A DNA stretch of 64,000 nucleotides from a virus (taxonomy: Duplodnaviria; Heunggongvirae; Uroviricota; Caudoviricetes): IMG/VR virus record IMGVR_UViG_3300035498_002028, one strand, 5' to 3'. The notes beneath the pieces are model-generated. The model saw only the letters and a list, made by a program, of their open reading frames with translations. It searched no databases and was not told where the DNA came from. Both the position numbers and the translations under genes were made by a program. This document shows, one piece after another, positions 11,221-41,445 of the stretch (positions are counted from its first letter, which is position 1; the number at the start of each line of letters is the position of its first letter).

Positions 11221-11296
11221 TCTTTACATCCTCCATAAATTTAAAATGTAGGTTATTAGTTGTTTTTGCTTCTTTATCTCTTGTTCTGTCTTGGTT

Positions 11297-12163
11297 TTAT
11301 TTGACAACAACCCAATCCATAGATAATAAATCTGTTTGAGATGCTGACCACGGGATAACGTTACCTTGTACTGTTTTCATAGCGATATATGCGCCATAAG
11401 GCACATCATTGCCGCCAAATGCTTCTTTTGCAATATCTGTGCAAGGTGGATACGCAGCAGCCGGAACATAGTATAAAAACATTCTTGGTGGCAATTCGTC
11501 ATTTGGAAAATTCAACTTTGCATACTGTCCAAATAATTCCCATGCTTTTCTATCATAGGCTTTTGCTGCTTCAATTTCATCATCAAATCTGCCTATATGT
11601 ATTGTTTTACCATCTGTTTGAATTGAAACAATCCATTTATTTCTCGATAAATCCCATGAAACACCCTTATACTGGCTCGTATGCGATTTGCTAATTCTGT
11701 TCATATTATTGTCCTTATGTGTTGCAATGCGCATATTTACACTTCTACAGTCAAGACCATTACCATTGATATGGTCTACGACATAGTTATTAGGAAGAAT
11801 TCCAAAAATGTAATTATGTAATCTAACATTTTCTTTTTTTGAATTATTAGTATAAAACGCATATTTGCCTTTATAAGAAGTCCATTTATGTAATGATACC
11901 TTTTCAAACTCCGAACCATCACATACGGCAATATTGCCATCTGATAATCGTATATATGTCAAATCAAACTTCTCAACATATTCAACCCTATTTTTTGGCT
12001 CATATTTTGGTGCTGGTTCAATTATCGGTGGGAATCTATTGCCATTCCATCCTAATCTCGTAACTTTTTTACCTTGTTTAAGATAATCAATGGCAGTGCC
12101 AAAACCAAATTCAATCAAAGCTCTTTTCTCCTTTCTTATAAAATATCTATAATCATCACTCAT
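11297..12163 (-). CDS. HNH homing endonuclease with AP2 DNA-binding domain
   Basis: VDHINGNGLDCRSVNMRIATHKDNN is an HNH motif; SQYKGVSWD...IHIGRFDDEIEAAKAYDRKA is an AP2 domain. Confidence 0.8.
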   Translation of the reverse strand: MSDDYRYFIRKEKRALIEFGFGTAIDYLKQGKKVTRLGWNGNRFPPIIEPAPKYEPKNRVEYVEKFDLTYIRLSDGNIAVCDGSEFEKVSLHKWTSYKGKYAFYTNNSKKENVRLHNYIFGILPNNYVVDHINGNGLDCRSVNMRIATHKDNNMNRISKSHTSQYKGVSWDLSRNKWIVSIQTDGKTIHIGRFDDEIEAAKAYDRKAWELFGQYAKLNFPNDELPPRMFLYYVPAAAYPPCTDIAKEAFGGNDVPYGAYIAMKTVQGNVIPWSASQTDLLSMDWVVVK

Positions 12164-14001: not shown

Positions 14002-14778
14002 TCACCTATTTATTATTTGCGAATAGTCATTGCGATTATTTTCACCAGACCATTCTCCATGCAATTCAAGTTCAGCAGAATGTCTTGCTTTTACTGCTTC
14101 TTCAAAAGTAGAAAAAGCACCTAGAAAAATACGCTTATTATCCTTTGAAATTCTAGCCACATATTTCCCACACCTTTTATTAAATGTAACTCCGGTATAA
14201 CCCGATGTATTATTTCTTTTTCGCCGGATATTGATATTATTTTCTGATTTTGTTGCAATTCTTAAATTACTTTTTCTATTGTTGTGCTTGTCCCAATCTT
14301 TATGGTCTACAAGTGTATTGTCATCCGTAATTCGCATTACAACTCTATGTAGCCAAACAATCTTATTTTCGCCATTTCGCCCATTGGCGATAATATATCC
14401 TTGTTCGCTAAATCTCCAACAATATTGACTTGCTATTTCATAGTCATCAATGTCTATGAAAAATCTTTCTCCTTTATCAGTAATTCCTATTGCAGTATTT
14501 CCATCAAACATCCAGCGGTTACTTTTTGTGTTCTTTTGTTTATGAATAATTTCTTTGAGATAACATCCGCAAGATGTAGTAGGATTTATTTTATTCTGCA
14601 AATTTGAGCTGCATACAACAGTTTGTTTCCCACAATCACAAAGGCAATTCCAATACGCTTTATTTCCTTTTCCTTGCTCTAGCAACTCTTTTTGCTTTTC
14701 ATAATTCCTTGATATGACAGTCAGCCTACCAAATCTTTTTCCAACCAAATCTTTTGCACACGACATATTAAATCTCAC
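14002..14778 (-). CDS. HNH homing endonuclease with AP2 domain
   Basis: VDHKDWDKHNNRKSNLRIATKSENN is an HNH motif; SGYTGVTFN...RIFLGAFSTFEEAVKARHSAE is an AP2 domain. Confidence 0.8.
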   Translation of the reverse strand: MRFNMSCAKDLVGKRFGRLTVISRNYEKQKELLEQGKGNKAYWNCLCDCGKQTVVCSSNLQNKINPTTSCGCYLKEIIHKQKNTKSNRWMFDGNTAIGITDKGERFFIDIDDYEIASQYCWRFSEQGYIIANGRNGENKIVWLHRVVMRITDDNTLVDHKDWDKHNNRKSNLRIATKSENNINIRRKRNNTSGYTGVTFNKRCGKYVARISKDNKRIFLGAFSTFEEAVKARHSAELELHGEWSGENNRNDYSQIINR

Positions 14779-16078
14779 TCAGTACATCTTCACTCATATT
14801 TTCAATCTGTTCGTCCGTTAGAGAATCTGCAATAATTCCAGACAATACTTTAAAACTAAAATTTTTATGCTTGTATGCCGTAAAAGATTCACGGTTATCA
14901 ATACGAACAACTACACCCTCTCTAACATGGCTCTTACCAATCGGGTCAACTCCGTCATAATATTTTTCAACTCGCTGCATTAAATCATCCCAGGTTGTAT
15001 AGATGAATTTCTCAAATAACGGAACGCATTTAACACCCATTTTTTCACATTCAATCTGAACCTGCTCCCACGGAAGCTCAACTGTATAGCCATCCTCATT
15101 TGTCATGGTCATACGGTATACATAACAATCATTTTCTCCGACTTCACAACCATAAGAGAATACGGTTTCTTCTCCATATTTACGAGAAAACTCTTTATCC
15201 TTGATTAGCTTGTTGGAACATCTTCCCATGATTGTTTGGTTGCCTTCTGTGTATCCAACAATTTCGTAGAACACTTCCATACCCTTTGGTAATCTTTCTT
15301 TGAAGAAATCGTGATACTTCTGACGGAAAGCATTACTTCCATAATACCCACCATCATAATCTCGCAAAGTGGTTCTTCTAGTTCCACTAACACACTTAAA
15401 CTGCTTAACTTCTTTATCTTTAAGCCGGAATACTTTCTTCAAAATTAAGTGACGTTTCTTTTTCGTTATCTCAATAGCATTTGCTGTTCTTGCAGATGTT
15501 CCATGCATCTTCAAAGTGATATAGCATGTATCGCCTGGCTTAAATGCACTTTGATTAAACGCAAGCTGCGCCGTATCAATATGCTCAACAAAGAACGGAT
15601 AAGAAATCTTTTCCTTTTCTTCTTTTTTGTTTTTCTTGTTCTGACTTGGTTGTTGACTATTATTTCTATTCTTACGTTTTGGGATATATTTTTTGCAAAT
15701 CTCATGTCCATCAAGAATTGTAATCTGGTCGCCATCGGTCAGTTTGTCAATATTCGTATACTTAGAAAGCACTTCTAATGGCATTAAAAGACCTTCTGAT
15801 TTCTCGCCACGTAATTTTAATGCAGTGATATTTCTTTTATCTGGGTCTAAATAACCACCGATATTATTGCCTTCCTCATCTTTCTTGCGGACTAAGTTGT
15901 TATCAGTAGCGAACTCTTCACTAAGCTGACCATCCACAGGAAAATAAATTACTCGTTCCCCCGCGAAATAGCTCATGTCAACAATGACATTATTGCCGAA
16001 TACAGTAACACACTGTAACCTGTCTGCATTGCTATGTTTGCGAAGTTCTTTGATTGTAGTAACATAAGCACAATACAT
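14768..16078 (-). CDS. ATP-dependent RNA ligase fused to an N-terminal tRNA-binding (Myf/Trbp111/EMAP-like) domain
   Basis: N-terminal HSNADRL...RGEKSEGLL matches the tRNA-binding-domain consensus (HPNADKL...RGV.SEGML). Nucleotidyltransferase motifs follow: KMHG (motif I variant), EGVVVR (IV), KHKNF (V). Confidence 0.65.
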   Translation of the reverse strand: MYCAYVTTIKELRKHSNADRLQCVTVFGNNVIVDMSYFAGERVIYFPVDGQLSEEFATDNNLVRKKDEEGNNIGGYLDPDKRNITALKLRGEKSEGLLMPLEVLSKYTNIDKLTDGDQITILDGHEICKKYIPKRKNRNNSQQPSQNKKNKKEEKEKISYPFFVEHIDTAQLAFNQSAFKPGDTCYITLKMHGTSARTANAIEITKKKRHLILKKVFRLKDKEVKQFKCVSGTRRTTLRDYDGGYYGSNAFRQKYHDFFKERLPKGMEVFYEIVGYTEGNQTIMGRCSNKLIKDKEFSRKYGEETVFSYGCEVGENDCYVYRMTMTNEDGYTVELPWEQVQIECEKMGVKCVPLFEKFIYTTWDDLMQRVEKYYDGVDPIGKSHVREGVVVRIDNRESFTAYKHKNFSFKVLSGIIADSLTDEQIENMSEDVLSEI

Positions 16079-16082
16079 AATT

Positions 16083-16787
16083 TTATTCCTCCATACTGTT
16101 GCCTTTTTCTAGGTTGCATAACTCACACATTGTCTGATAGTTATTGAGTGTATTTTCTCCACCTTTTGATGCCGGAATGATATGGTCTTTTGTCATAAGA
16201 ATTTCAACACCATTATTGTTTATGGCATATAGGTTAAGATGATACCTTTTTGCGTTCTGTGCTTTACAACGCTCTTTTCTAAAGTAACTTCCAGTAATAC
16301 CACATTTGCAGCAAGTTACTCCTTTTGTAAAGAATGTTTGATATCTTTGGGAGTTACCACGGACAATATCGCCATCAAGAATGATATCTGCTTCATTCTT
16401 TTCCTTGAAAAGAACATCTTTGGTAACTGTTTTTATTTGTTCGATTGTATACGTCTCTTTACGTTCATACATAATCTCGCGGTTCTTTGCAAGTTCTTCT
16501 GCTGACATTTTAAATTTGTCATGTTTTTGTTTTGCTGGCTTCTGTGAGAAATCGTAATTTCTCACAAAGTCGTACAACTCTCCAACAGTTTTAATATCGC
16601 TATAATTGCTTGCGCCTTTCACATGCACACCGCTAATTTCTGTATTGAAATCAAACCCAAATTCACTATTTTTTCGCAGTGGATTTTTTAGAAAATCTTC
16701 TACCTTTTTGTACTGCATTCTTAGCGGAATTTGATTTTTTTGATATACAAACTTTATCGCGTAGTGTTTCATTCTTGACATATCCAT
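16083..16787 (-). CDS. HNH endonuclease
   Basis: CCKCG...C....HLNLYAIN...DHIIPASKGG...NNYQTMCELCNLEKGN is an HNH/zinc motif; AAAGGAGAG RBS lies upstream of ATG 16787. Confidence 0.75.
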   Translation of the reverse strand: MDMSRMKHYAIKFVYQKNQIPLRMQYKKVEDFLKNPLRKNSEFGFDFNTEISGVHVKGASNYSDIKTVGELYDFVRNYDFSQKPAKQKHDKFKMSAEELAKNREIMYERKETYTIEQIKTVTKDVLFKEKNEADIILDGDIVRGNSQRYQTFFTKGVTCCKCGITGSYFRKERCKAQNAKRYHLNLYAINNNGVEILMTKDHIIPASKGGENTLNNYQTMCELCNLEKGNSMEE

Positions 16788-16968
16788 CTCTCCTTTTAGC
16801 TTTAGAAGAGGGCTTTTGTTTCTGTTGTTCTGTCTTGGTTTTATCGAATTTTAAAGGAACCTTCTTACTTTCCTGGTAACATTTAGGACATCTATTAAGT
16901 TCAAATGCCTTACCATTTTCAAATCTCATCAAATGTACCATTTTACAATTACAATTCTTACAAAACAT
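16666..16968 (-). CDS. small zinc-ribbon protein (overlaps the downstream HNH gene in another frame)
   Basis: MFCKNCNCK...CPKCY zinc ribbon; Lys-rich tail overlaps 16083-16787 by 120 nt. Confidence 0.35.
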   Translation of the reverse strand: MFCKNCNCKMVHLMRFENGKAFELNRCPKCYQESKKVPLKFDKTKTEQQKQKPSSKAKRRDGYVKNETLRDKVCISKKSNSAKNAVQKGRRFSKKSTAKK

Positions 16969-16989: not shown

Positions 16990-17030
16990 CTGTTCATTAT
17001 AACATATTCTAGGATAATGTCAATACTTTT
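16990..17030 (-). promoter_or_regulatory. Consensus sigma70-type promoter (TTGACA-N16-TATAAT) with conserved upstream CAGAAAAAGTA
   Basis: Minus strand: TTGACA at 17024-17019, TATAAT at 17002-16997; precedes 16968/16787 starts. Confidence 0.55.
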
Positions 17031-17039
17031 TCTGTCTTA

Positions 17040-17861
17040 TTATTCAATCTGCAACATATCTGTTTTTGCCCTTTGGTAGAAGTTTCTATCAATTTCAAAT
17101 CCATAGGCGCTACGTCCTAATTCTTTTGCAGCTCTTAATGTTGTACCACTTCCGGCACAAGGGTCAATTACAACATCGCCCTCATCGGTAAATGTTTCAA
17201 TCAATTTTTTCAGCACTTTTACGCTTTTTTGCGCTGGATGAATTTTAGGAACATCTTTACCGTCTCTTTCCCATGTAAACCAATTAAATACCATATGTCC
17301 TGTCCCTGGTATCGTCTTACCATTTTCGTCAAATTTTGCTCCATTTCTGAATTTTGGAAGCCTATCTCTGTAAAACAATAAGGCATATTCTGTAGCTCCA
17401 ACAACTCTCATATTTGCTTTCAAAACCTGCGGGCTATAATTTTTACAGAATACCAGTGGTATATAGTGAATAAAGCCATGTTTTTCTGCTGCACTAATCA
17501 GTGTTTGAATCTGTTCGAATGAACAAAATACAATCATACATGGTGAATTACTGCTTCTTCCTCTTGGTACTGGTCTTGTATCATCTTTTTTCAACATTTT
17601 TGAGCAAAAATGAAAATACTCATATAAGTTGAAATTAAAATCACTGTTAAATGCAGCTTTGCCAGCTAACTTGCTCTCGCCATTCTTTCTATCTCCACCC
17701 TTATACCATATAGGATTGCTGCCGTAAAAATTGTTCCCTATGTTATAAGGGATATCAGCTATTACTAACTGCGCCGGGGGGATTGCATATTTTTTATAGT
17801 TCTGCATACTATCCCTATACAATTCACACTTGATTTTTCTTGTTGGTTTAATTAAGTCCAT
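17040..17861 (-). CDS. DNA methyltransferase (beta-class N6-adenine or N4-cytosine)
   Basis: DIPYNIGN (motif IV-like) precedes DPCAGSGTT (motif I). Contains CGCCGGGGGG at 17774-17783. Confidence 0.75.
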   Translation of the reverse strand: MDLIKPTRKIKCELYRDSMQNYKKYAIPPAQLVIADIPYNIGNNFYGSNPIWYKGGDRKNGESKLAGKAAFNSDFNFNLYEYFHFCSKMLKKDDTRPVPRGRSSNSPCMIVFCSFEQIQTLISAAEKHGFIHYIPLVFCKNYSPQVLKANMRVVGATEYALLFYRDRLPKFRNGAKFDENGKTIPGTGHMVFNWFTWERDGKDVPKIHPAQKSVKVLKKLIETFTDEGDVVIDPCAGSGTTLRAAKELGRSAYGFEIDRNFYQRAKTDMLQIE

Positions 17862-17867
17862 TATGCT

Positions 17868-18116
17868 CTATCTCCTTTTATTGCTTGTCAATCTGTTTAA
17901 CATCGCTTTTACTGTATCATAACTTGGATTAGCTGCTAATCTCTTTCCATCTGGACTAAACAACTGATATATAGGTGTAGTATAATAATAGTTATGACAG
18001 TATAAATATTTCTTTTTGGAAGCAATCAATATATATCCACATATATTATCCAATTCCCATACTTCTGTATTTTCATCCTGCGAAAAAGATTTCATTATTA
18101 AGTCAAATTCATTCAT
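17868..18116 (-). CDS. hypothetical protein
   Basis: 82-aa ORF. Confidence 0.4.
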   Translation of the reverse strand: MNEFDLIMKSFSQDENTEVWELDNICGYILIASKKKYLYCHNYYYTTPIYQLFSPDGKRLAANPSYDTVKAMLNRLTSNKRR

Positions 18117-18866: not shown

Positions 18867-19741
18867 ATTTTAATTTATTCTCCTGCTTCTCTCTTGTTCT
18901 GTCTTGGTTATAATTCGTAATCAAAACCTCAATATCTTTACTTCTATCAATTTTATGATAGTTGCAATTACTATAGTCACCGTTTAAGTAATGAACATTA
19001 TACTTATTCTTCCATTTATCTAATCGTGGGTTTTCATATTTTAGATTATTACTTAGTGCAAAACGAATTCCTCTCGTATCTAAAGCATCTAAAATATCAA
19101 GTAATCTTTTTTCGTTATCATCAGACCATCCACCATTTTCATTATATGCCGCCACACTATTATAATAAGGTGGGTCACAGTAAACAAAATCTCCTGGATT
19201 GATACTCAGATAATCAAAATCATAAAATTGCTGGTTTATAAATATACAATTTTTGCTATGCAGTGCATCAACAAATGCAATGAACTTTTGTCTCAACGCT
19301 GGATTAAAACTACTCCTATTTTTACCAAAGGGCATATTATACTTCCCATTATTATTAAAACGTATCTGATAGTTAAATGCATAACATATCATCGTATAAA
19401 ACATGATAGGACTGTTATCACCAAAATTATACGCATTTCTCAAATCAGAAAAGCCTTGAGCATTTTCTTTGCTTAATCCATAATTACTGATAATAGAATC
19501 AATTTCAGACAATAATTGTTCTATATCAGTTTCTTTTAAGTATTCCATTAAACCAACAACATGATTTTCAATATCATTATAGATTACTTTTCTTGCTTCT
19601 ACATTTATGCCTACGTTGAACCCCCCCGGCGAAAACGTCAACAAAAGTATCTATATCTGTTGGAAATAATGGGATAATTTCATCTAATAGCTTATATTTA
19701 CCACCAACATAATTCAGTGGGCTTTTGATATAATTTCCCAT
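18847..19741 (-). pseudogene. Second Dam-family adenine methyltransferase, frameshifted within a C7/G7 tract (19621-19627)
   Basis: The N-terminus MGNYIKSPLNYVGGKYKLL...FVDVFAGG is encoded from ATG 19741 in one frame. The rest (FNVGINV...DPPYY) is in the -1 frame from 19644. A single G fewer in the G7 run gives a continuous protein. Confidence 0.7.
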
Positions 19742-23606: not shown

Positions 23607-24644
23607 TCAAGAAATATAACCTTCATTTGTTATCACCCTCTCATTTACACTGGCAACGAAATCGTCAATCTTTTCTCTGTCAACGGTATCCGGCAAACCT
23701 GTATGCTCTTTTAAGTAATCCAATTTTTTCTCCATATCGTCTACAATCTTGTAGAATTCCTGCGTTGGTTGTCTATTTTCGTCAAGATACTTGCCATTTC
23801 TGATATCCATTAAAAAGTCATGTTCTTTTTCTCTATATGTGCAAATCTCACCATATTCAAGTATGTCAAAACACATTAAATATAGTCTTACAAGATGGCA
23901 CATATGTTTCCCTAATTTACTGTGCTCAATCGCTTTACTGTTACGTTTGCCTATTTTCCCATAACCGCTCACAATAGCTTTCATCTCGTTCCACATATTA
24001 GCCCAATCCCTTAGTGGATAATGCTGTAAATTGATATTCATAAATATTTCAGTATCGTATCCTTCTTCAACTGCTTTATCAATAAACAACTCAAGCTCGC
24101 CATCCGACATGGGAAAATAATTCTGTTTAAAATCAACCGATGCATGTTCAATTGTTTTTAAAATATGCTTCTCATTGTCACTTTGGCTTACAAGTCTTGC
24201 GGATTTGTTTTCAAGGCGGCGAAGCTGCGCATTTGCGTAACCTCCAAAAGAATGAATTGCCTGCTTAGAAAGAAACATCTTTCTGTTATTTACAAGTTCT
24301 TCACCTATTGGAGATAAATACAGATAATGCTCTGGTTTCAAGCCTAAAATTTCAATTGTGTTTGGGTTACATTTGCACAGCAATTCGATAATTTTGTCGA
24401 ATGAGTAAACTGTAGTATCTGTTTCCACGTCCACGACTTGTTCAAAATCTTTACCTGTTAAAATATTCCTTCTTGAATTTGTGGCAATCCCCCGAACATC
24501 TAAGTCGCTGTTTTCATTACTGGTTCCATATGCATGGCTGCCGCCTAATCCTAACAGGACAATATGACTTCCCAGACTTTCATGTTGTCTAAGGAAGTCA
24601 TAGTCGGACGATTGAACTTTTGTTTTAATTTCTTCTAAATTCAT
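23607..24644 (-). CDS. Pol-beta superfamily nucleotidyltransferase (minimal NTase core)
   Basis: LGLGGSHAYGTSNENSDLDVRGI matches the GS....G......SD.D NTase motif. Confidence 0.5.
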   Translation of the reverse strand: MNLEEIKTKVQSSDYDFLRQHESLGSHIVLLGLGGSHAYGTSNENSDLDVRGIATNSRRNILTGKDFEQVVDVETDTTVYSFDKIIELLCKCNPNTIEILGLKPEHYLYLSPIGEELVNNRKMFLSKQAIHSFGGYANAQLRRLENKSARLVSQSDNEKHILKTIEHASVDFKQNYFPMSDGELELFIDKAVEEGYDTEIFMNINLQHYPLRDWANMWNEMKAIVSGYGKIGKRNSKAIEHSKLGKHMCHLVRLYLMCFDILEYGEICTYREKEHDFLMDIRNGKYLDENRQPTQEFYKIVDDMEKKLDYLKEHTGLPDTVDREKIDDFVASVNERVITNEGYIS

Positions 24645-24686
24645 ATCGTACTTCTCTTATATATGTTGTTCTGTCCTAATTATTTC

Positions 24687-25367
24687 TTACAAAAGTACCA
24701 AGATTGAAGAATCAAGGGTCAAAAACGGACGAACACCGTAGCAATAGCCACAATCATACCAATTCAACGTACCACTGGAGATGACGCAGCAAACGCCACG
24801 AGCATAATCATTTGATGGTGTACTATATGGTGTAATCAGATACCACCAGTCTGAATACTGCTCGTTCACACCGAGAATCTTATGGTATTTTGCGTATTCT
24901 GCTGCTGATAAAAGACTGATTTTATCATCACAATAACCATAATCATCCAGCCCATCCAAAGAGGTTAAGTCCCTTCTAAAGCCAAGAATGCTATCAGAAC
25001 CAACAATAGCTGCTAATTCCTTTAAATAATCTCCATTGAGCTTTCTCCGGATATCACTTTCTTTCCAGTCATTGCTATCTCCAAATTTCATGCTCATATG
25101 GAAATCAGCTGCAATAACTTTTGTTGCATTAACTGTCTGTTCAAGAACCATAAACTCTCTGTCACCGATTTTAAAATGCTCTCCTACTTTCAATGTCGAA
25201 AGCTGAACTTTACCAGCATTTAAAACCTTCTCAATATCTGCTGTGATATCAATAATGAGCTTACCATTTTCAATTTTCATGTTTGTCTGGTCTACTGTAA
25301 TCTGCATTTTTCTTACCTTATTTACCTTTCTTTTAAATCTTTTAATCATATCAGTTCCTCTTCTCAA
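24687..25367 (-). CDS. hypothetical protein
   Basis: 226-aa ORF; consensus sigma70 promoter lies upstream. Confidence 0.5.
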   Translation of the reverse strand: MRRGTDMIKRFKRKVNKVRKMQITVDQTNMKIENGKLIIDITADIEKVLNAGKVQLSTLKVGEHFKIGDREFMVLEQTVNATKVIAADFHMSMKFGDSNDWKESDIRRKLNGDYLKELAAIVGSDSILGFRRDLTSLDGLDDYGYCDDKISLLSAAEYAKYHKILGVNEQYSDWWYLITPYSTPSNDYARGVCCVISSGTLNWYDCGYCYGVRPFLTLDSSILVLL

Positions 25368-25384
25368 TACTTATTCTGTCTTAC

Positions 25385-25430
25385 TTATTATATTGTAATG
25401 CACAATTATTGCTTTGTCAATAGTTTTTCT
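25385..25430 (-). promoter_or_regulatory. sigma70-type promoter (TTGACA-N17-TACAAT) with conserved CAGAAAAACTATTGACA
   Basis: Minus strand: TTGACA at 25420-25415, TACAAT at 25397-25392; upstream of 25367 start. Confidence 0.5.
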
Positions 25431-25439
25431 GCATTATCT

Positions 25440-25760: not shown

Positions 25761-26195
25761 CTACATATTTATATCAGCCAAACTTGCAATTCTGATGATG
25801 GCATCATCTGGTGTATGTCCGTCCCATTTTGGTGCATGGTCAAGCTCTGGTACATTGAAAATGTCCCAATATGGTTCAATATCATAATGATATGTAGCTT
25901 GTCCTTTTGGAGTGTTAATGCCTACAATAAACATTCCGTCATACATATCACCAGTATCATGCAGCCTGGACTTCCATGCAAGCTCCGGATTGTTATTACA
26001 GATTACAGCAAACAAAATTGCTCTATGATGATATAGCTCATCAAAGGTATGGTATCCATCTGATACCTTACCGTATTCACCATTTAGAATTAGTCTTGTA
26101 TCCTCTCTAATTAACTCTTTACTAGGCGTTTGCAAAACGCCAAAAGCCGCATAAATACGGCATTTTTTTGTTGACAAAATAAAATATCTCCTCAC
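25761..26195 (-). CDS. hypothetical protein
   Basis: 144-aa ORF. Confidence 0.45.
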   Translation of the reverse strand: MRRYFILSTKKCRIYAAFGVLQTPSKELIREDTRLILNGEYGKVSDGYHTFDELYHHRAILFAVICNNNPELAWKSRLHDTGDMYDGMFIVGINTPKGQATYHYDIEPYWDIFNVPELDHAPKWDGHTPDDAIIRIASLADINM

Positions 26196-32809: not shown

Positions 32810-33082
32810 TTAACCTACCTTTCCACAATAAATGTACTTCGTAAATGTAGCTTCATTACCATATCTGTCTGTGCCAGTACGGTCTAAACTTTCGATATTA
32901 TAGTGCTTTCTTAGGTTATAAATAATTGCACTTAACCTTGTAGCGCCATAATTATCAATAGCTTCCCAACTTGTAATACTTCCGTATTTTTGCAAGTGGT
33001 TTAAAACTTTCTGAGTTTTTGTAACCCTTTTTGTTCTCTGCACCTTTTTCACTGGATGCTCGCCCCCTTTACTTAGCCACAA
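32810..33082 (-). CDS. winged helix-turn-helix DNA-binding protein
   Basis: LNHLQKYGSITSWEAIDNYGATRLSAIIYNLRK matches a common phage HTH family; the true start is probably a GTG with an AAAGGGGG RBS inside the listed ORF. Confidence 0.55.
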   Translation of the reverse strand: MWLSKGGEHPVKKVQRTKRVTKTQKVLNHLQKYGSITSWEAIDNYGATRLSAIIYNLRKHYNIESLDRTGTDRYGNEATFTKYIYCGKVG

Positions 33083-33305
33083 TCTTTGCTAAAATATATG
33101 TTTCTCATTTTTGGCTACCTTTCTATTTGTTCTGTCTTGGTTTTGGTGCAGGTAATAATACTTTTGGAATATTACCACTACCTCCACCAGCCTTTAATGC
33201 TCTTGCAATTCCGTTTACATCATATACGGCTTGCTCAAAATGCCAACCATATGGGCTTAATCCTTTTAATGGATTAACAACCTCTGCATTATTCTTCATA
33301 CTTAT

Positions 33306-35187
33306 CTATCCTTTTTCAATCAATTTATAAGCATTTCTAAGAGAGCTACTACCAATATTCAATGTAAGTGTTCCAATAGTATCTTGGTCTTTTCTTATAT
33401 TGCTATTGTAATCATCATATACAATGGTATCTGATTTATTATCTGACACCAATGTTGCTGTAACAGTACCATGATTTTCTTTTACGCAAGGTGCACAACC
33501 AGAAGAAGAAACTATTCTACTTGCATCATGGTTACTTTTCATGTAGTTTCCTAGAACTTCAATTCTACTACTCCCCCGACACAATCATGTGTTAATGGAA
33601 TATCAGAAACTATAAAACTCTCTTCTCCATTTGTACCACCATTGATATCATCAAATAATTTATCTAATGCACACTCAAAGGCTCCTATTCCAGAGAAAAA
33701 GCTGCCGACCTTTAAATTGTCAAATAAATAAGGCATAGCTTTGTATAAATTTTTGTATATGTAATATAAAACATCAACCACAATTGAGTTTCCAGCTTGT
33801 TTGTATAGCTGCGTATTACTAACACCAGCATTACTAGCTCTGTCAAATGCTTCATCAGAAAAAGCCATAAGTCTAAAACATTCTCTTGGTGTTAATTTAC
33901 GGATTCTATAACCAACATTATTATTTTGTTCTATCACTCTTTTACCCCCCGGAATCTATTGTACGGATTGTTCCACATACATTATCTTTGAATGTACGCA
34001 AACCTTCATCCATTCTTTTCTCACAAATAATCTTTTCCATATCATCACTACTTTCTGAATACTTCATCATTTTCTTTATCCAAAATCAAAATTTTAGGTG
34101 GGTCTTTATAATCTGTTGCTCTTAATGATTGGCAACACCCCCCGATAGATAGAACTCTTACTCTATCCTGGCATCCTTTGTTTGGATTTAATGAACCTAT
34201 AACGCAAATTCCACTGTTCTTTTTCTTCATATAATTACTCCTTTTTGCTATGTTCTATAATTGCTGTTGGAGATTTATAATCACAAGCATTCAAACACCT
34301 AGTAATACCATTTGAATCATAAACCATGTTTGACTGATGTTTTCCAGTACCTTTATCAAGATAACCAACACAGTTTACACTTGAATCATATCCCATTGAT
34401 GTCTGTCTATGCTTCCTCTCCCCCCCCCCCCCGCACGAACAGTATTAGAAAATTCTTTATTTAGTTTTCCATTCTTTTCTAAATCTTCTAATAGCTCTTT
34501 TGCCTTTGGAGTATTAACATAAAACTTTTGGTCAACCTCATCTTCTAATACATCTTTAAGACGTATATCGCTATTAAATCCTTCCGGAAATTCAAAGAAT
34601 CCGTTATCTAATTCTTTTTTGATGATTACTAGATATACTCGTTCTCTATTCTGAGGTACACCGAAATCTTTTGCATTTAACACCTTGTAATATGTGTTAT
34701 ATCCGTATTCATTTAGTTCTTCAATGAACATATTAAATGTGTCTTTGAACTGTTTCCCTACAATATTTTTTACATTTTCATATATGCCCCAATTTGGTTT
34801 ATTGGCTCTTATTACTCTTAACCATTCAACTAATAATGAAGAGCGTGTCTTATCAATTTCTTCACTATCACATACAGGGCACTTATGCCTTTTTGAATAA
34901 TGAACTGTTAATGGATTGTATTCGTGATTACACTTTATACACTTCCATTTACTACCAGCTTGCTTACCTGCCACTGAAAAATCTTGACAAGGCGAACCTC
35001 CACAAATCATTGTAAATGGTTTTAATTCACTTTCATCAACCTTAGTAATATCGCCAAGATTCAAACTTTCGTCAACATCATGGATTGCACAGTAACTTTT
35101 TGTTGCATATTTATCAAATTCACAAAAATTTACAAGCTCATATCCTTTAGATGTTGAACTTATATTTTTATTTGTCATAATAAACAC
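33306..35187 (-). pseudogene. C5-cytosine DNA methyltransferase region broken into at least 4 frames by poly-G/C tracts (13, 6, 6 and 5 nt)
   Basis: 35187-34375 carries motifs II-VIII (EFDKYATKSY, GGSPCQDFS, ENV, GVPQNRERVY), ending in the C13 run at 34420-34432. 34230-34048 has a TRD-like piece (QDRVRVLSIGG...DYKDPPKI). 33937-33551 has motifs IX/X (RKLTPRECFRLMAF, QAGNSIVVD) then a motif-I-like VGSFFSGIGAFE. 33584-33306 is reachable across a C5 run. Confidence 0.6.
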
Positions 35188-35537
35188 TCCTATTTTGGTT
35201 TGTCTCTAATACAGAACCTATATATTCTGTAGAAACAATTGAATTATTGGTTTCTAAATTACCAACTTTTGCCTATTTATAAGGCTAAAATAAAAATATA
35301 ATTTTACTTACTATTCGCGGCTAATCCGCACAAGATGATTTCTCATTTTTAATATCAATGTTTTAATAGCTGTGTTTTGCTTGGAATTTAATCCAGGTCT
35401 TTATCACCACTAACACAAGCGCCTTTTCTAAGAGGAACACTTTTTCTATAAAACAAAGAGAATTTTAAGATGGTTTACTCCACCTGTTTTTATCCTGCTT
35501 CTAACATGCAGTCCATCTTGTGCTGCCGCATCGAATA

Positions 35538-35978
35538 TTAAGATAATTTCTTTAAGTAATCGTCAACACACTTTGCAATAATCTTATTGTCAGCTTTACC
35601 CTTTAGCTCAGCCATTACTAACTTCATACATGTGCCTTTATTGTCTGCTCCGGAATTTGAAAGGATTTCGTCTACCTTATCAGCAGTTTCATTCTCATCC
35701 ATCATTTTCGGCAAATATGAGGACAACACTTCAATTTTGTAAAGTGTAGATTTATATAAATCAGATTCTTGCCTGTTCACAAGAGAATCCTTTGTCTGAT
35801 TAAGTTGCTTCAATTCCTTTTTGATTCCATCAAGCATAATGTCATCAGTAATATCACATTTGTTTGTCTTTGCAATATCCTGCGCTTTTGCGACTGCCAT
35901 TTTCAATGTGTCGCGTTTATCGACATCTTTTGACTTCATAGCATCTTTGATTGCGCCCTGGATTGTCTGATACATCAT
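35538..35978 (-). CDS. GatB/YqeY-domain protein
   Basis: The pattern ...KSKDVDKRDTLKMAVAKAQ...LYKSTLYKIEVLSSYLPKMMDENE matches the YqeY consensus. Confidence 0.5.
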   Translation of the reverse strand: MMYQTIQGAIKDAMKSKDVDKRDTLKMAVAKAQDIAKTNKCDITDDIMLDGIKKELKQLNQTKDSLVNRQESDLYKSTLYKIEVLSSYLPKMMDENETADKVDEILSNSGADNKGTCMKLVMAELKGKADNKIIAKCVDDYLKKLS

Positions 35979-35980
35979 TT

Positions 35981-36271
35981 TTACTTTTCTCCCTCTGTTT
36001 CTGTACTTGCAAATAATGTATTGTACTTTGCAATGGTATCAACATTCTTTGCCTTCATATCTAAAAGTTTCTGTTCGGTATCATTAAGAGCAGCCTTCTT
36101 TTCGGCAATCTCTTTAAGAGACTGGTCAATACCCTCGTTAATTTGGCTCAATGACTGTATTGCCAGAGTGATTTCATTTTCGACTACATTGGATTCACTT
36201 CCGTAATAATCAAGTTCACTTTTCTTTTCCTCGAAGAAATCTGCATTTGTTGTGTTTCTTAAAAGTCCCAT
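35981..36271 (-). CDS. hypothetical coiled-coil protein
   Basis: 96-aa ORF. Confidence 0.4.
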   Translation of the reverse strand: MGLLRNTTNADFFEEKKSELDYYGSESNVVENEITLAIQSLSQINEGIDQSLKEIAEKKAALNDTEQKLLDMKAKNVDTIAKYNTLFASTETEGEK

Positions 36272-36314
36272 TGTTTCGTTCTCCTTTTCCTTGTTGTTCT
36301 GTCTTGGTTTTAAA

Positions 36315-37304
36315 TTATTTAATAAAGCTCAAGATGTGTGAAATTATATCCACAGTCCATCCATCGCCCAAAACATTCGCTGCGTCATTTCGATTTAAGC
36401 ATTTAGTATATCCTTCTGGAACCGTTTGGCATCTTTCTAATTCCAACTGATTCATATATCTTACACCATTAAATACATCGCCTGTATAATTATCTAAATC
36501 ACTCGCCGCTACTTTTCTTTTTCCACCAGATAGTCTATTATATTCTTTCACGCATTGTTCATAATGAGTTTCATCTTTAAATATCAATGTCGTAAATCCA
36601 GTAGAATAATACCGATGAAACATTTTTACTGGTGTAGCATTTGGTCTGCTATCAATAACTGCCAAACATCTTGCTTTTTCACGGTCTGTATAGCCATCAG
36701 TAAGGATGTCTTTTAACAATATTCCTTTATCTTCTGGTTGTGTTATGCCAGGTATATTTGTCCAATAATATCTTTTTCTTAAAGCCGGAGCAACTAATCG
36801 ACTATCAATTTTTATCGGTTGCAAACCTAAGAATGCACTGATTGTATCCTTATCAGAATCTTTCATACTTGCTACATTTTCCATTAGAAAATATGTAGGT
36901 TTCACTTCTTTTAAAATTCGACTACACTGATAAAACAAACCCGATTTTTCAAGATTTTCTAATCCTACTCTTTTTTCTGTAGGAATTGCAATAGAAAACG
37001 TTTGGCAAGGACTTCCAAAAATCATCAAATCAAAATGTGGTACGATATAATTACCCGATTCTGTTTTTAAAATATGGTTTTCATATGATACTTTATTCAC
37101 ATCACCAATTTGTATAATATCTGGATAATTTTCTTTTGAAACTTTTATGCCAATATCCTTGATTTCACTTGCATAATACTTATCTACTTCTATTCCAGCT
37201 CGTTCTAAAGCAATTCTGCCGCAGGACATACCATCACATAGACTTAATACCGTTAAGCCTTTGTTTGTTGATAAAATACCTTTTTGATTATCGTTTATTC
37301 CCAT
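36315..37304 (-). CDS. C5-cytosine DNA methyltransferase (Dcm-like)
   Basis: LSLCDGMSCGRIALERAG (motif I), FGSPCQTFS (IV), ENV (VI); a consensus sigma70 promoter lies just upstream. Confidence 0.8.
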   Translation of the reverse strand: MGINDNQKGILSTNKGLTVLSLCDGMSCGRIALERAGIEVDKYYASEIKDIGIKVSKENYPDIIQIGDVNKVSYENHILKTESGNYIVPHFDLMIFGSPCQTFSIAIPTEKRVGLENLEKSGLFYQCSRILKEVKPTYFLMENVASMKDSDKDTISAFLGLQPIKIDSRLVAPALRKRYYWTNIPGITQPEDKGILLKDILTDGYTDREKARCLAVIDSRPNATPVKMFHRYYSTGFTTLIFKDETHYEQCVKEYNRLSGGKRKVAASDLDNYTGDVFNGVRYMNQLELERCQTVPEGYTKCLNRNDAANVLGDGWTVDIISHILSFIK

Positions 37305-37434: not shown

Positions 37435-37480
37435 TGATTGATTATAACACCCTCGCAATATGATGTCAATACTTTTTCTG
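37435..37480 (-). promoter_or_regulatory. Consensus sigma70 promoter (TTGACA-N17-TATAAT) with conserved CAGAAAAAGTATTGACA
   Basis: Minus strand: TTGACA at 37469-37464, TATAAT at 37446-37441; upstream of the C5-MTase gene start (37304). Confidence 0.6.
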
Positions 37481-37493
37481 CATTATTTATAAA

Positions 37494-40530: not shown

Positions 40531-41445
40531 TTATACCTCCGTTGTTCTGTCTTGGTTATGCGGAATTAAAAGCATCTCTTTGCTACTAAATCCGGCAGCG
40601 CCAGCATGACCGCCACCACCATGATTCATTGCAATCTTTGAGACATCAATCCTATTTGAACGCAGTGAATATGTCCATACATTTCCATCAAATGAAAATC
40701 CAACAAACATATCATAATTTTCTGAATCTACGGAATTAAAATCGTCACTGCTTACCATTGCGAGATTGATTGCAAAACATTTGAATCCATCAAGTATTGC
40801 TTCGAAACCTTTTATTGCGCAATATTCAGCAACCCAGCCCTCTCTATATGTGATAATATCTACTCCACTCTTACAAATAGAATCCAATAATTTTTCATCT
40901 GAATCAGTAATTAAATCATTCCAGATTTCGTCTGTTGGTTCATTATCATATAACTGAAAACCACTCGCAAATCGTCTTGTTTGAATGCCATACTTAAATG
41001 TCCATACATCATAATCTGCAATAAGTTTTGTAAACATCGGTGCTTCTTGTGTCATAGAGATATCGAAGTTTTTAATCACTTCTCCAACTCCACCATCCGT
41101 CATGAATTTTAAGAAACAGAATGTAAGCATACATCCGGCAACACCATCTAATCGAATACCTCTGATATTCTTCGTATATCCTCTATATCTTTCAATTGAT
41201 GATTGATGATGGTCAATCCATACAACATCATTTGTAATTTCAAGAAGCCTATCCATTTCTTCCGGGAAAATAGAATAGTCAACGATATATACCTGTTCAC
41301 CTTCTTGGATTTTATCAAATGGGAAATCCATACCATAATTGATTTTGTAAAACTCTAATGGATAGTTGTCACTGTGCCAAGCTAATTCCTTAACCCAGAA
41401 TCCAGCACACTTTCCATCATTATCAACGTGATAAAATACTTTCAT
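40531..41445 (-). CDS. DHH/DHHA1 phosphoesterase (NrnA-like nanoRNase / pAp phosphatase)
   Basis: VVWIDHHQS (DHH motif) and GGGGHAGAAGF (DHHA1 GGGH). Confidence 0.65.
   Translation of the reverse strand: MKVFYHVDNDGKCAGFWVKELAWHSDNYPLEFYKINYGMDFPFDKIQEGEQVYIVDYSIFPEEMDRLLEITNDVVWIDHHQSSIERYRGYTKNIRGIRLDGVAGCMLTFCFLKFMTDGGVGEVIKNFDISMTQEAPMFTKLIADYDVWTFKYGIQTRRFASGFQLYDNEPTDEIWNDLITDSDEKLLDSICKSGVDIITYREGWVAEYCAIKGFEAILDGFKCFAINLAMVSSDDFNSVDSENYDMFVGFSFDGNVWTYSLRSNRIDVSKIAMNHGGGGHAGAAGFSSKEMLLIPHNQDRTTEV

Follow-up and report, generated by a model that had tools for sequence, protein, structure and literature searches.

The operators of P1 C1 are asymmetric 17-bp sites that occur in many dispersed copies over a large temperate genome and control many operons; they are promoter-associated and obey no strict orientation rule. 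In cluster A (L5-type) actinobacteriophages, the repressor binds as a monomer to more than 20 asymmetric 13-mers that lie in promoters, where they are called operators, and in short intergenic spaces, where they are called stoperators; it acts in an orientation-dependent manner and blocks both initiation and elongation, and the consensus of its sites differs between related phages and tracks immunity (PMC9283540). SPbeta, a large temperate siphovirus, has in SPBRE a 15-bp site of its master repressor MrpR (YopR), verified by ChAP-seq and electrophoretic mobility shift assay, which is found in some 10–13 early promoter regions and is co-oriented with the downstream gene (PMC10516654). MrpR has a tyrosine-recombinase fold. 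Here we describe a 16-nucleotide (nt) element that recurs in a 64,000-nt stretch of Caudoviricetes DNA (IMG/VR record IMGVR_UViG_3300035498_002028), which we call the window throughout, and in relatives of its phage, W. L-numbers designate sequence stretches or contigs from those relatives.

The element of W resembles the sites of the L5 gp71 and TipsytheTRex repressors, which are asymmetric, measure about 13–18 bp, and are present in many copies both at promoters and in short gaps that have no promoter. As with the cluster A sites, orientation in the W family is tied to transcription, copies are flipped in flipped operons, and versions are lineage-specific. The W element differs from the cluster A sites in its setting, which is probably an SPbeta-like Lachnospiraceae phage of about 155 kb rather than an actinobacteriophage of about 50 kb, and in its sequence, which is unrelated. 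No gp71-like repressor was found in W, its copies also lie inside open reading frames (ORFs) and inside a transfer-messenger RNA (tmRNA) gene, and its promoter-linked (P-type) copies stand just upstream of the −35 or after the −10. SPBRE, as we re-derived it from NC_001884, reads (ACAAATACA)AAAAATATGTATATA and contains a partial dyad; it lies 4 nt upstream of the −35 at aimR and yonX, after the −10 at yonX and yopV, upstream of yonP-yonO, and upstream of replication genes. The W family likewise has a perfect copy at 22–23 nt from the ATG of its yonO-like gene and a copy before Sak and the replication genes, in both cases co-oriented. The W motif AACCAAGACAGAACAA, however, has no similarity to AAAAATATGTATATA, most SPBREs, unlike the stand-alone (S-type) copies of W, overlap a real sigma-A promoter (TAGACA-N17-TATAAT) at its spacer and −10, and no MrpR homolog was detected in the W-family sequences searched. 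The P1 operators have no relation to the W element in sequence or in protein.

Dispersed regulatory sites are a known kind of phage control, encountered here in a new phage group. We read the W element as the operator and stoperator-like network of a phage-encoded regulator, a reading to which we give a probability of about one half. Its nearest precedents are the L5 gp71 sites and the SPBRE/MrpR system, SPbeta being the nearest by type of genome. A cis-regulatory, phage-specific role as such is well supported by sequence comparison, in which the motif varies between lineages, keeps its positions, and is co-oriented with transcription.

A recurrent element at and away from sigma-A promoters

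The window represents one arm of a large phage, with a GC content of 34% and all genes on the minus strand, among them those for DnaE, DnaB, DnaG, Sak, and NAD ligase, RNA-repair genes (RNA ligase, RlaP, CCA-adding enzyme, and kinase), many methylase and HNH genes, tRNAs, and a tmRNA. On the minus strand the 16-nt core reads AACCAAGACAGAACAA, which corresponds to TTGTTCTGTCTTGGTT on the plus strand. A search of the window with TTGTTCTGTCTTGGTT at up to three mismatches returns 18 matches, all on the plus strand, where 1.05 are expected, and none of 100 shuffles reaches that number. Given these counts and the single orientation, the recurrent motif reported in a preliminary description of the window is real. 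Seven copies are perfect (11281, 16825, 18894, 33127, 36294, 40542, and 52905), and four have one mismatch (15636, 54684, 58227, and 62909); including variants there are about 20, all oriented with the direction in which the genes are read. The information content of the core is about 29 bits and its edges are sharp. An A at position −2 is invariant, and the element is thus about 18 nt long, A-N-AACCAAGACAGAACAA on the minus strand. Neither the 16–18-nt motif nor its flanks contain a dyad, and the window holds no reverse-strand copies, as is characteristic of an asymmetric site. Further copies lie directly outside the window. An exact-motif scan of IMG/VR, GTDB genomes, and JGI metagenomes, none of which, as scanned, contains the genome of the window, gave single chance-level matches, with the exception of the W-like contigs L001/L101 and L028.

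The positions given in the preliminary description are right within 2 nt (11283 becomes 11281, and 18895 becomes 18894) and the copies it listed are real, but it overlooked those at 15636, 49891, and 56980, the last two of which are conserved in relatives. Its statement that all copies sit shortly upstream of a start codon applies to seven of the 11 best copies, which lie 14–60 nt upstream of one against a background of 8.4% per position; it does not extend to the copy at 58227 inside the tmRNA gene, to that at 52905 before the leader of a CRISPR array, or to that at 62909, where the next start codon is 108 nt away. Spacing to the start codon ranges from 11 to 60 nt and shows no fixed register. 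It had also stated that no sigma70 boxes follow the motif. This is correct for the strong copies, but two weak variants, both listed there, depart from it: the one at 17027 has a perfect TTGACA-N16-TATAAT promoter 3 nt behind it, and the one at 25371 begins 5 nt past a −10.

Every strong sigma-A promoter on the coding strand carries a copy of the motif family. This is so for the window promoters at 17023, 25420, 37469, 50381, and 58555, for one outside the window (L105, 11587), and for promoters in relatives. The place of these P-type copies is fixed, either 3–4 nt upstream of the −35 or 0–8 nt after, or overlapping, the −10/+1, and some promoters are bracketed on both sides. The P-type consensus, AATAAKRCAGAAAAA-gta-TTGACA, is a weaker variant of the motif. 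On the minus strand, variant TAATAAGACAGAAAAA (17027–17042) stands 3 nt upstream of the −35 of a sigma-A promoter that scores 12/12 (16996–17023), as does element AAATAATGCAGAAAAA (37473–37488) at another 12/12 promoter (37441–37469). The same 3-nt spacing from the −35 is found for variant AAATAATACAGAATAA (50385–50400) at the promoter at 50353–50381 and for element AAATATATCAGAAAAA (58559–58574) at the promoter at 58527–58555, which drives the tmRNA/tRNA cluster. The promoter at 25392–25420 has element AGATAATGCAGAAAAA (25424–25439) 3 nt upstream of its −35 and variant AAGTAAGACAGAATAA (25371–25386) starting 5 nt after its −10, both again on the minus strand. At four of the six strong promoters, another copy follows within 500 bp, namely 25371, 16825, 58227, and 49891.

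The perfect S-type copies differ systematically from the P-type copies, with CC at positions 3–4 and C at position 13. At 11281–11296 (this and all copies that follow are on the minus strand), a perfect copy lies directly after the stop codon of an HNH/AP2/Tad2-like gene and 60 nt before the start codon (11220) of the Sak single-strand annealing protein, at the head of the replication module; relatives have their own version of the motif at this place. Upstream of the perfect copy at 16825–16840, at a distance of about 150 nt, is the start site of the 17023 promoter, and an HNH gene starts 37 nt after the copy. The basic tail of a small zinc-ribbon ORF (16666–16968) runs through this copy, and orthologous small ORFs in L041, L043, and L048 run through the motif of their own lineage. 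Several other perfect copies overlap the ends of ORFs: that at 18894–18909 falls within a Dam-like methyltransferase ORF, 21 codons short of its stop, and the next start codon (18866) follows after 27 nt; that at 33127–33142 overlaps the last six codons of a 58-residue ORF, 44 nt before the start (33082) of a winged helix-turn-helix (wHTH; HTH_39) gene; that at 40542–40557 falls in the last nine codons of a DHH-family ORF, with a Shine-Dalgarno sequence that starts 1 nt later and an ATG 14 nt later; and that at 52905–52920 falls in the last 11 codons of a 98-residue ORF, with the leader of CRISPR-like array A and a Cas12f/TnpB-like gene just downstream. The seventh perfect copy (36294–36309) follows the stop of a C5-methylase gene by 5 nt and precedes the start codon at 36271 by 22 nt; the 37469 promoter is about 1.1 kb upstream of it.

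Two S-type copies have one mismatch, one of them intergenic and 17 nt before the start codon at 54666 (54684–54699) and the other 27 codons before the stop of a 125-residue ORF (62909–62924). A weak variant with three mismatches (24666–24681) lies 5 nt after the stop of the target gene of a diversity-generating retroelement (DGR) and 21 nt before the start codon at 24644. The remaining copies are inside genes. The one-mismatch copy AACCAAGTCAGAACAA (15636–15651) is within a hypervariable, lysine-rich linker of the RNA-ligase ORF (14768–16078). Variant AACCAATACAGAAAAA occurs twice, about 40 nt into an N6-methylase ORF, with the 50381 promoter about 450 nt upstream (49891–49906), and in codons 28–33 of a 744-residue ORF (56980–56995); the former copy is identical in L101 and is replaced by the lineage motif in L473. 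The one-mismatch copy AACCAAGACAGAATAA (58227–58242) is inside the phage tmRNA gene (58033–58431), in an insert of about 25 nt that is placed in a variable region and absent from L101; the start site of the 58555 promoter is about 280 nt upstream of the copy.

The S-type copies are not enriched for sigma-A promoters, with a mean best score of 8.2/12 (range, 7–10) against 7.8/12 in random windows. Many copies lie 0–45 nt upstream of a Shine-Dalgarno sequence, and some S-type copies abut it (1 nt at 40542, 0 nt at L043 20877), with the ATG as close as 11–14 nt. Where the Shine-Dalgarno sequence abuts the motif, the transcript for the next gene must start inside or upstream of the motif. This constraint rules out an activator site or a −10-type element and leaves either a single-block promoter of the T7 type or a site that is not a promoter. 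A sigma-A promoter, a MotA-type box, and a −10-only promoter were all rejected for the S-type copies on the grounds that these lack a conserved downstream element, show no enrichment of promoters, and can be abutted by the Shine-Dalgarno sequence. Copies that overlap ORFs fall in all three reading frames, which points to a nucleotide signal and led us to reject a peptide motif. A structured RNA or known RNA family was likewise rejected, as Rfam returns only the tmRNA and tRNAs and predicted folds at the motif, which is mostly unpaired, have z-scores that match those of control upstream regions. An association with terminators was discarded too, there being no excess of terminator-like sites in the 64-kb window. 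The core CAGAAAA alone is similar to the CodY box, but the left half-site is missing and this identification was dropped; the conserved G/C positions speak against a pure UP element. Finally, the motif is not a target of the neighboring Cas12f/TnpB-like protein: the five spacers of the two mini-arrays have no match to it, and L101 keeps the motif without having the module.

Versions in relatives, the YonO-like polymerase, and the probable host

The relatives compared are DnaB-centered loci from IMG/VR with 48–83% DnaB identity, on contigs of about 150–160 kb. The exact 16-mer of W is absent from these loci, and each has its own recurrent, co-oriented version: CCAACGCAGATAA in the L043 lineage, TAAATCTGAACAA in that of L041/L042, TTAAATCAGAAAA in that of L045, TAAATAAGACGGAATAA in that of L048, AACCAAAACAGAAAAA in that of L052, and AGTAAATAATTAA in that of L072. 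The versions have in common a loose core, AA..AA..C(A/T)GAA.AA, and they occupy the same three contexts as in W, standing alone, upstream of a −35, or after a −10; one copy of the latter kind (L048, 18015) overlaps the −10 itself. An exact scan with the L043 motif gave two copies already known and none further. Positions shared across lineages are those upstream of both Sak and the RNA ligase, in the latter case within the zinc-ribbon ORF's tail, at the N terminus of the 744-residue ORF, and at the start of the N6-methylase ORF. In codons 28–33 of the 744-residue ORF, W has AACCAATACAGAAAAA, which encodes the peptide TNTEK, whereas the L045 lineage has GTAAATCAGAAAA, which encodes SKSEK. The closer relative L101, with about 75% nucleotide identity, retains the W-type motif, and its ortholog of the 62909 copy (L101, 4112) is perfect although the flanks are only about 67% identical. 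Similarity among the lineage motifs does not follow the DnaB tree, which is the pattern expected of an exchangeable immunity module; no protein of the replication module co-varies with motif type.

In the window and the DnaB loci the orientation of the motif is inseparable from the strand, but a divergent region in L499 separates the two. There, three minus-strand copies lie in a minus-strand gene block and two plus-strand copies in a plus-strand block, and L470 has a minus-strand promoter with a flipped motif. The orientation of the site therefore tracks the direction of transcription in L499 and L470.

Outside this family, k-mer motif discovery in Clostridioides difficile phage pCD1602_4, the closest GenBank phage, was swamped by an AT-rich background (27% GC). 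Bacillus phage PBC2 has promoters with a conserved SPBRE-like spacer and no stand-alone element like that of W. The early promoters of PBC2 (L442, 76922–101200) share the spacer T(T/A)GAC(A/T)AAnCAAAAGATAATGATATAAT, which is close to that of the SPbeta SPBRE promoters, TAGACAAAnATAAAAAATATGTATATAAT; this suggests from sequence that the Bacillus phage family uses an SPBRE-type design with the operator in the spacer.

W is probably a large (about 155-kb), temperate, SPbeta-like phage of Lachnospiraceae. The assignment to SPbeta-like phages follows from YopX in the window and from a YonO-like RNA polymerase, a YonN-like HU protein, and YonG- and YonF-like late genes, which together reproduce the layout of the SPbeta late region. 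The yonO-like gene is known from W-like contigs and from the 156,001-bp contig of the relative L042, outside the window itself. It encodes a protein of 925–935 residues (L028, 5794–8577; L498, 10001–12778; L499, 10001–12808), with some of these sequences matching Pfam PF05183. On L028, a contig found by the exact-motif scan of IMG/VR and from the same sample series as the W-like contigs, a perfect copy of the motif lies 23 nt before this gene, whose product has 927 residues. The YonO-like protein is 26% identical to SPbeta YonO over 550 residues (E = 4e-29) and has the metal-binding motif DKDGD; the protein database holds more than 4000 YonO-like homologs at E ≤ 1e-20. Among the approximately 90 window proteins scanned there is no RNA polymerase and no sigma factor, and the 744-residue protein was rejected as a polymerase.

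Two lineages share a gene order that runs from a motif-bearing promoter through small genes, a stand-alone copy, the yonO-like gene, a gene for a 299-residue protein, and a beta-CASP nuclease gene to ClpP, a metallophosphatase, the YonN-like HU protein, tRNAs, the YonG-like gene, and the YonF-like terminase. The 10 kb that follow the yonO-like gene, with the gap ahead of the YonG/YonF-like late genes, hold no copy at up to three mismatches, and the corresponding region of L499 has only a two-mismatch match at chance level. On an 87.7-kb W-like contig from ENA (L498, 1–8800), the polymerase region is joined to genes for acetyl-CoA hydrolase, tryptophanyl-tRNA synthetase, RNase T, a histidine kinase, an S8 peptidase, and a diacylglycerol kinase. 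The tryptophanyl-tRNA synthetase is 78% identical to chromosomal Lachnospiraceae/Roseburia enzymes, and the junction is a gene-free, AT-rich stretch of about 800 nt with the palindrome TAAGACATGTCTTA; from its sequence it is probably a prophage junction. Together with NrdD, which is encoded just outside the window, this bacterial junction and the synthetase point to a prophage in an anaerobic Lachnospiraceae host. The W-family sequence examined, which comprises parts of genomes, yielded no integrase.

A putative regulator network and competing explanations

We propose that a putative sequence-specific regulator encoded by the phage controls the host sigma-A RNA polymerase on the non-structural arm. 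At the strong sigma-A promoters, protein bound to the operator copies would block or modulate initiation, and at the S-type copies it would halt the elongating polymerase in the manner of a stoperator. Long, terminator-free operons could thereby be kept silent in the prophage or be shut down late in infection, and the specificity of the regulator and the motif would drift together between related phages, as immunity determinants do. Since terminators are not in excess in the window, internal stop sites would be a useful way to silence long operons. A fixed place at the sigma-A core elements, combined with conserved sites in ORFs and in the tmRNA gene, suits a DNA-bound protein that hinders the host polymerase and suits a promoter poorly. 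The preliminary description had offered a phage-specific promoter and an operator for a phage regulator as alternatives. The operator is now favored, by the fixed relation to the −35 and −10, by the copies in the 5′ ends of ORFs and in the tmRNA gene, and by the lack of a copy before the late operon, and the promoter is weakened. That a protein binds the element, that binding represses, and that elongation is blocked at the S-type copies are all three steps that we infer.

Several findings weigh against this proposal. The search for a reader protein yielded no regulator and no gp71-like candidate. No homolog of MrpR/YopR was found by tblastn, blastp, or phmmer, with SPbeta YopR and a gut-phage homolog as queries, in the window, L035–L082, L101–L108, L028, L498–L500, and L460–L497, which cover part of each genome; MrpR homologs are present in other large gut phages, next to ligase or replication genes. 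The window encodes one small wHTH protein (32810–33082; Pfam HTH_39), which the preliminary description had put forward as a possible reader, and an HTH_36 protein is the first gene after a promoter on a W-like contig, both without a sequence match in the PDB. Proteins encoded upstream of YopX were dismissed as regulators because they belong to a DGR. An information content of about 29 bits, with seven of 12 copies perfect, exceeds what an operator typically needs and resembles phage RNA-polymerase promoters, and a high-affinity roadblock inside the tmRNA gene would be odd if the tmRNA is to be expressed. Since S-type and P-type sequences differ systematically, it is possible that the two kinds of copy have different readers. 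Moreover, the 3′ half of the P-type element belongs to a 17-mer promoter cassette, CAGAAAAAGTATTGACA, which is exact in 40 IMG/VR stretches (L460–L497 among them) where about seven are expected, many of them on contigs of 25–50 kb outside the family, and the fixed spacing from the −35 could in part reflect shared descent of this cassette. The evidence for a temperate lifestyle, finally, is one contig junction, which could be a misassembly.

The S-type copies might instead be single-block promoters, with the transcription start inside the motif, that are used by the YonO-like polymerase or another phage factor and drive the middle genes, that is, those for replication, nucleotide metabolism, and the polymerase; the P-type copies would then make tandem early and middle promoters. 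High information, sharp edges, and the lack of a bipartite −35/−10 fit such promoters, as do the genes that copies stand in front of, namely Sak with the replication module, NrdD, methylases, and the yonO-like gene. The 64-kb window has few sigma-A promoters and no terminators. Like the promoters of T7-like and P23-45 polymerases, the element is a high-information, lineage-specific motif upstream of many genes in a family that encodes its own polymerase. That polymerase is of the two-barrel type, strongly conserved promoter motifs that recur in multiple copies are known from other two-barrel phage polymerases (P23-45; bioRxiv 10.1101/2022.12.01.518664), and lineage-specific versions would also fit co-evolution of polymerase and promoter. 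However, SPbeta YonO transcribes the late operon only, from one promoter (PMC5467207), and the W motif, unlike phage-polymerase promoters, is not seen before the late operon; as only the 10 kb beyond the yonO-like gene are covered, this absence is a hint and not a decisive result. Conserved orthologous copies 40–100 nt inside ORFs and in the tmRNA gene would give truncated products, a promoter of this kind does not account for the fixed position relative to the −35 of every strong sigma-A promoter or for the overlap with the −10/+1, and the scanned window proteins include neither a sigma factor nor a second polymerase. We consider this explanation unlikely. A role at the level of RNA, in which an unstructured A/C-rich site would serve a phage RNA-binding protein or endoribonuclease as translational operator or processing site, would make sense of the many copies close to a Shine-Dalgarno sequence, of the unpaired state of the motif in predicted folds, of the copy within a structural RNA, of copies just after the −10 that fall at the extreme 5′ end of transcripts, and of the plentiful RNA-repair genes. 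It is at odds with the copies upstream of the −35, which lie outside the transcript of their own promoter, with the L048 copy at 18015, whose overlap with the −10 means that the full motif is not transcribed there, and with the lack of a fixed register to the start codon; no candidate RNA-binding reader was found, and we judge such a tag very unlikely. That the S-type copies are either single-block promoters of a second phage transcription mode, such as the YonO-like polymerase acting on middle genes, in contrast to SPbeta, or an RNA tag of mRNAs and tmRNA that would link mRNA processing to trans-translation seems to us doubtful; either would be new biology for large Firmicutes prophages.

The element might also have no dedicated reader and be a UP-like part of a promoter cassette that was spread and homogenized by recombination, comparable to the promoter/stem-loop cassettes of T4-type phages, with the S-type copies as remnants or as junctions of module shuffling. 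The occurrence of CAGAAAAAGTATTGACA in many unrelated-looking gut phage contigs speaks for this, and the A-rich 3′ half is similar to a proximal UP subsite. Variable modules also have copies at their edges: 54684 and 50385 enclose the CRISPR-Cas12-like block that L101 lacks, and an HNH gene separates the 16825 copy from the RNA ligase, which in relatives the motif directly precedes. Yet the S-type copies are better conserved than the P-type copies, G/C positions are conserved in a manner that would be atypical of UP elements, orthologous sites persist across about 25–30% nucleotide divergence (62909 in W against 4112 in L101), and the motif is maintained in coding regions with lineage-specific sequence. 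Sixteen nucleotides is, in addition, very short for homogenization by gene conversion, and an element without a reader is hardly probable.

If the operator and stoperator reading is true, the stoperator type of elongation block, documented so far only for actinobacteriophages, would extend to SPbeta-like prophages of about 150–160 kb in gut and rumen Firmicutes, and the specificity of its reader would diversify between close relatives. The motif versions would then serve as sequence markers by which the immunity groups of an uncultivated phage family could be told apart, and the motif would map its transcription units, with early sigma-A promoters, internal stop sites, and the gene for the YonO-type polymerase under the same control. 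The versions would also amount to a set of orthogonal operators and, after identification of the proteins, a source from which repressor/operator pairs could be drawn. The W family offers a test bed for how SPbeta-like phages gate the expression of their own RNA polymerase.

Neighboring modules

The tmRNA gene (58033–58431, minus strand) scores 77.7 bits with Rfam and has the tag ANTELKAVA* according to ARAGORN; it is followed by tRNA-Gln, tRNA-Trp, and tRNA-Lys. ARAGORN also reports a tRNA-Phe at 25821–25894 on the plus strand, opposite to all genes and inside a WDGH-domain ORF (25761–26177). Rfam does not report it, and it is probably a false positive.

A type V-like CRISPR module occupies 50693–52806 on the minus strand. 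It encodes a 532-residue Cas12f/TnpB-like protein (51029–52627; Pfam Cas12f1-like_TNB and OrfB_IS605) and has two mini-arrays with different 36-nt repeats, A (52639–52806, three repeats) and B (50693–50926, four repeats); both arrays have a leader of about 70 nt in front of them, and the two leaders are similar. The syntenic L101 lacks the module entirely.

Just upstream of the window end, L103 (1–2260) contains a DGR made up of a variable repeat (VR; 121–205), an Avd-like ORF (237–605), a template repeat (TR; 629–709), and a reverse transcriptase (884–2260). All 16 differences between VR and TR are at TR adenines. A remote second VR lies in the window (24724–24805, minus strand) at the 3′ end of a DUF6273 gene (24687–25349), about 42 kb away, and is 90% identical to the TR.

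The small, conserved zinc-ribbon protein (16666–16968, minus strand) has the pattern CKNC...CPKC and a tail rich in lysine and arginine, and its gene is the first after the 17023 promoter. In every lineage the tail is encoded across that lineage's own motif copy, and in the window the 3′ end of the gene overlaps the inserted HNH gene. A C5 cytosine methylase profile is split over three ORFs, at 36315–37304 (profile positions 2–120), 34375–35178 (positions 81–220), and 33551–33937 (positions 268–323), with unrelated genes between them (33551–37304); these may be split, rearranged, or multiple genes.

Two further sequences are associated with promoters. The 17-mer CAGAAAAAGTATTGACA may be a common form of strong promoter in the host clade. 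The repeat cggctag(a/t)a(a)tgTTCATCCTTCTA(t) occurs six times in L101 (10830–11620) and once in the window (50300–50330), just downstream of sigma-A promoters and near tRNA genes.

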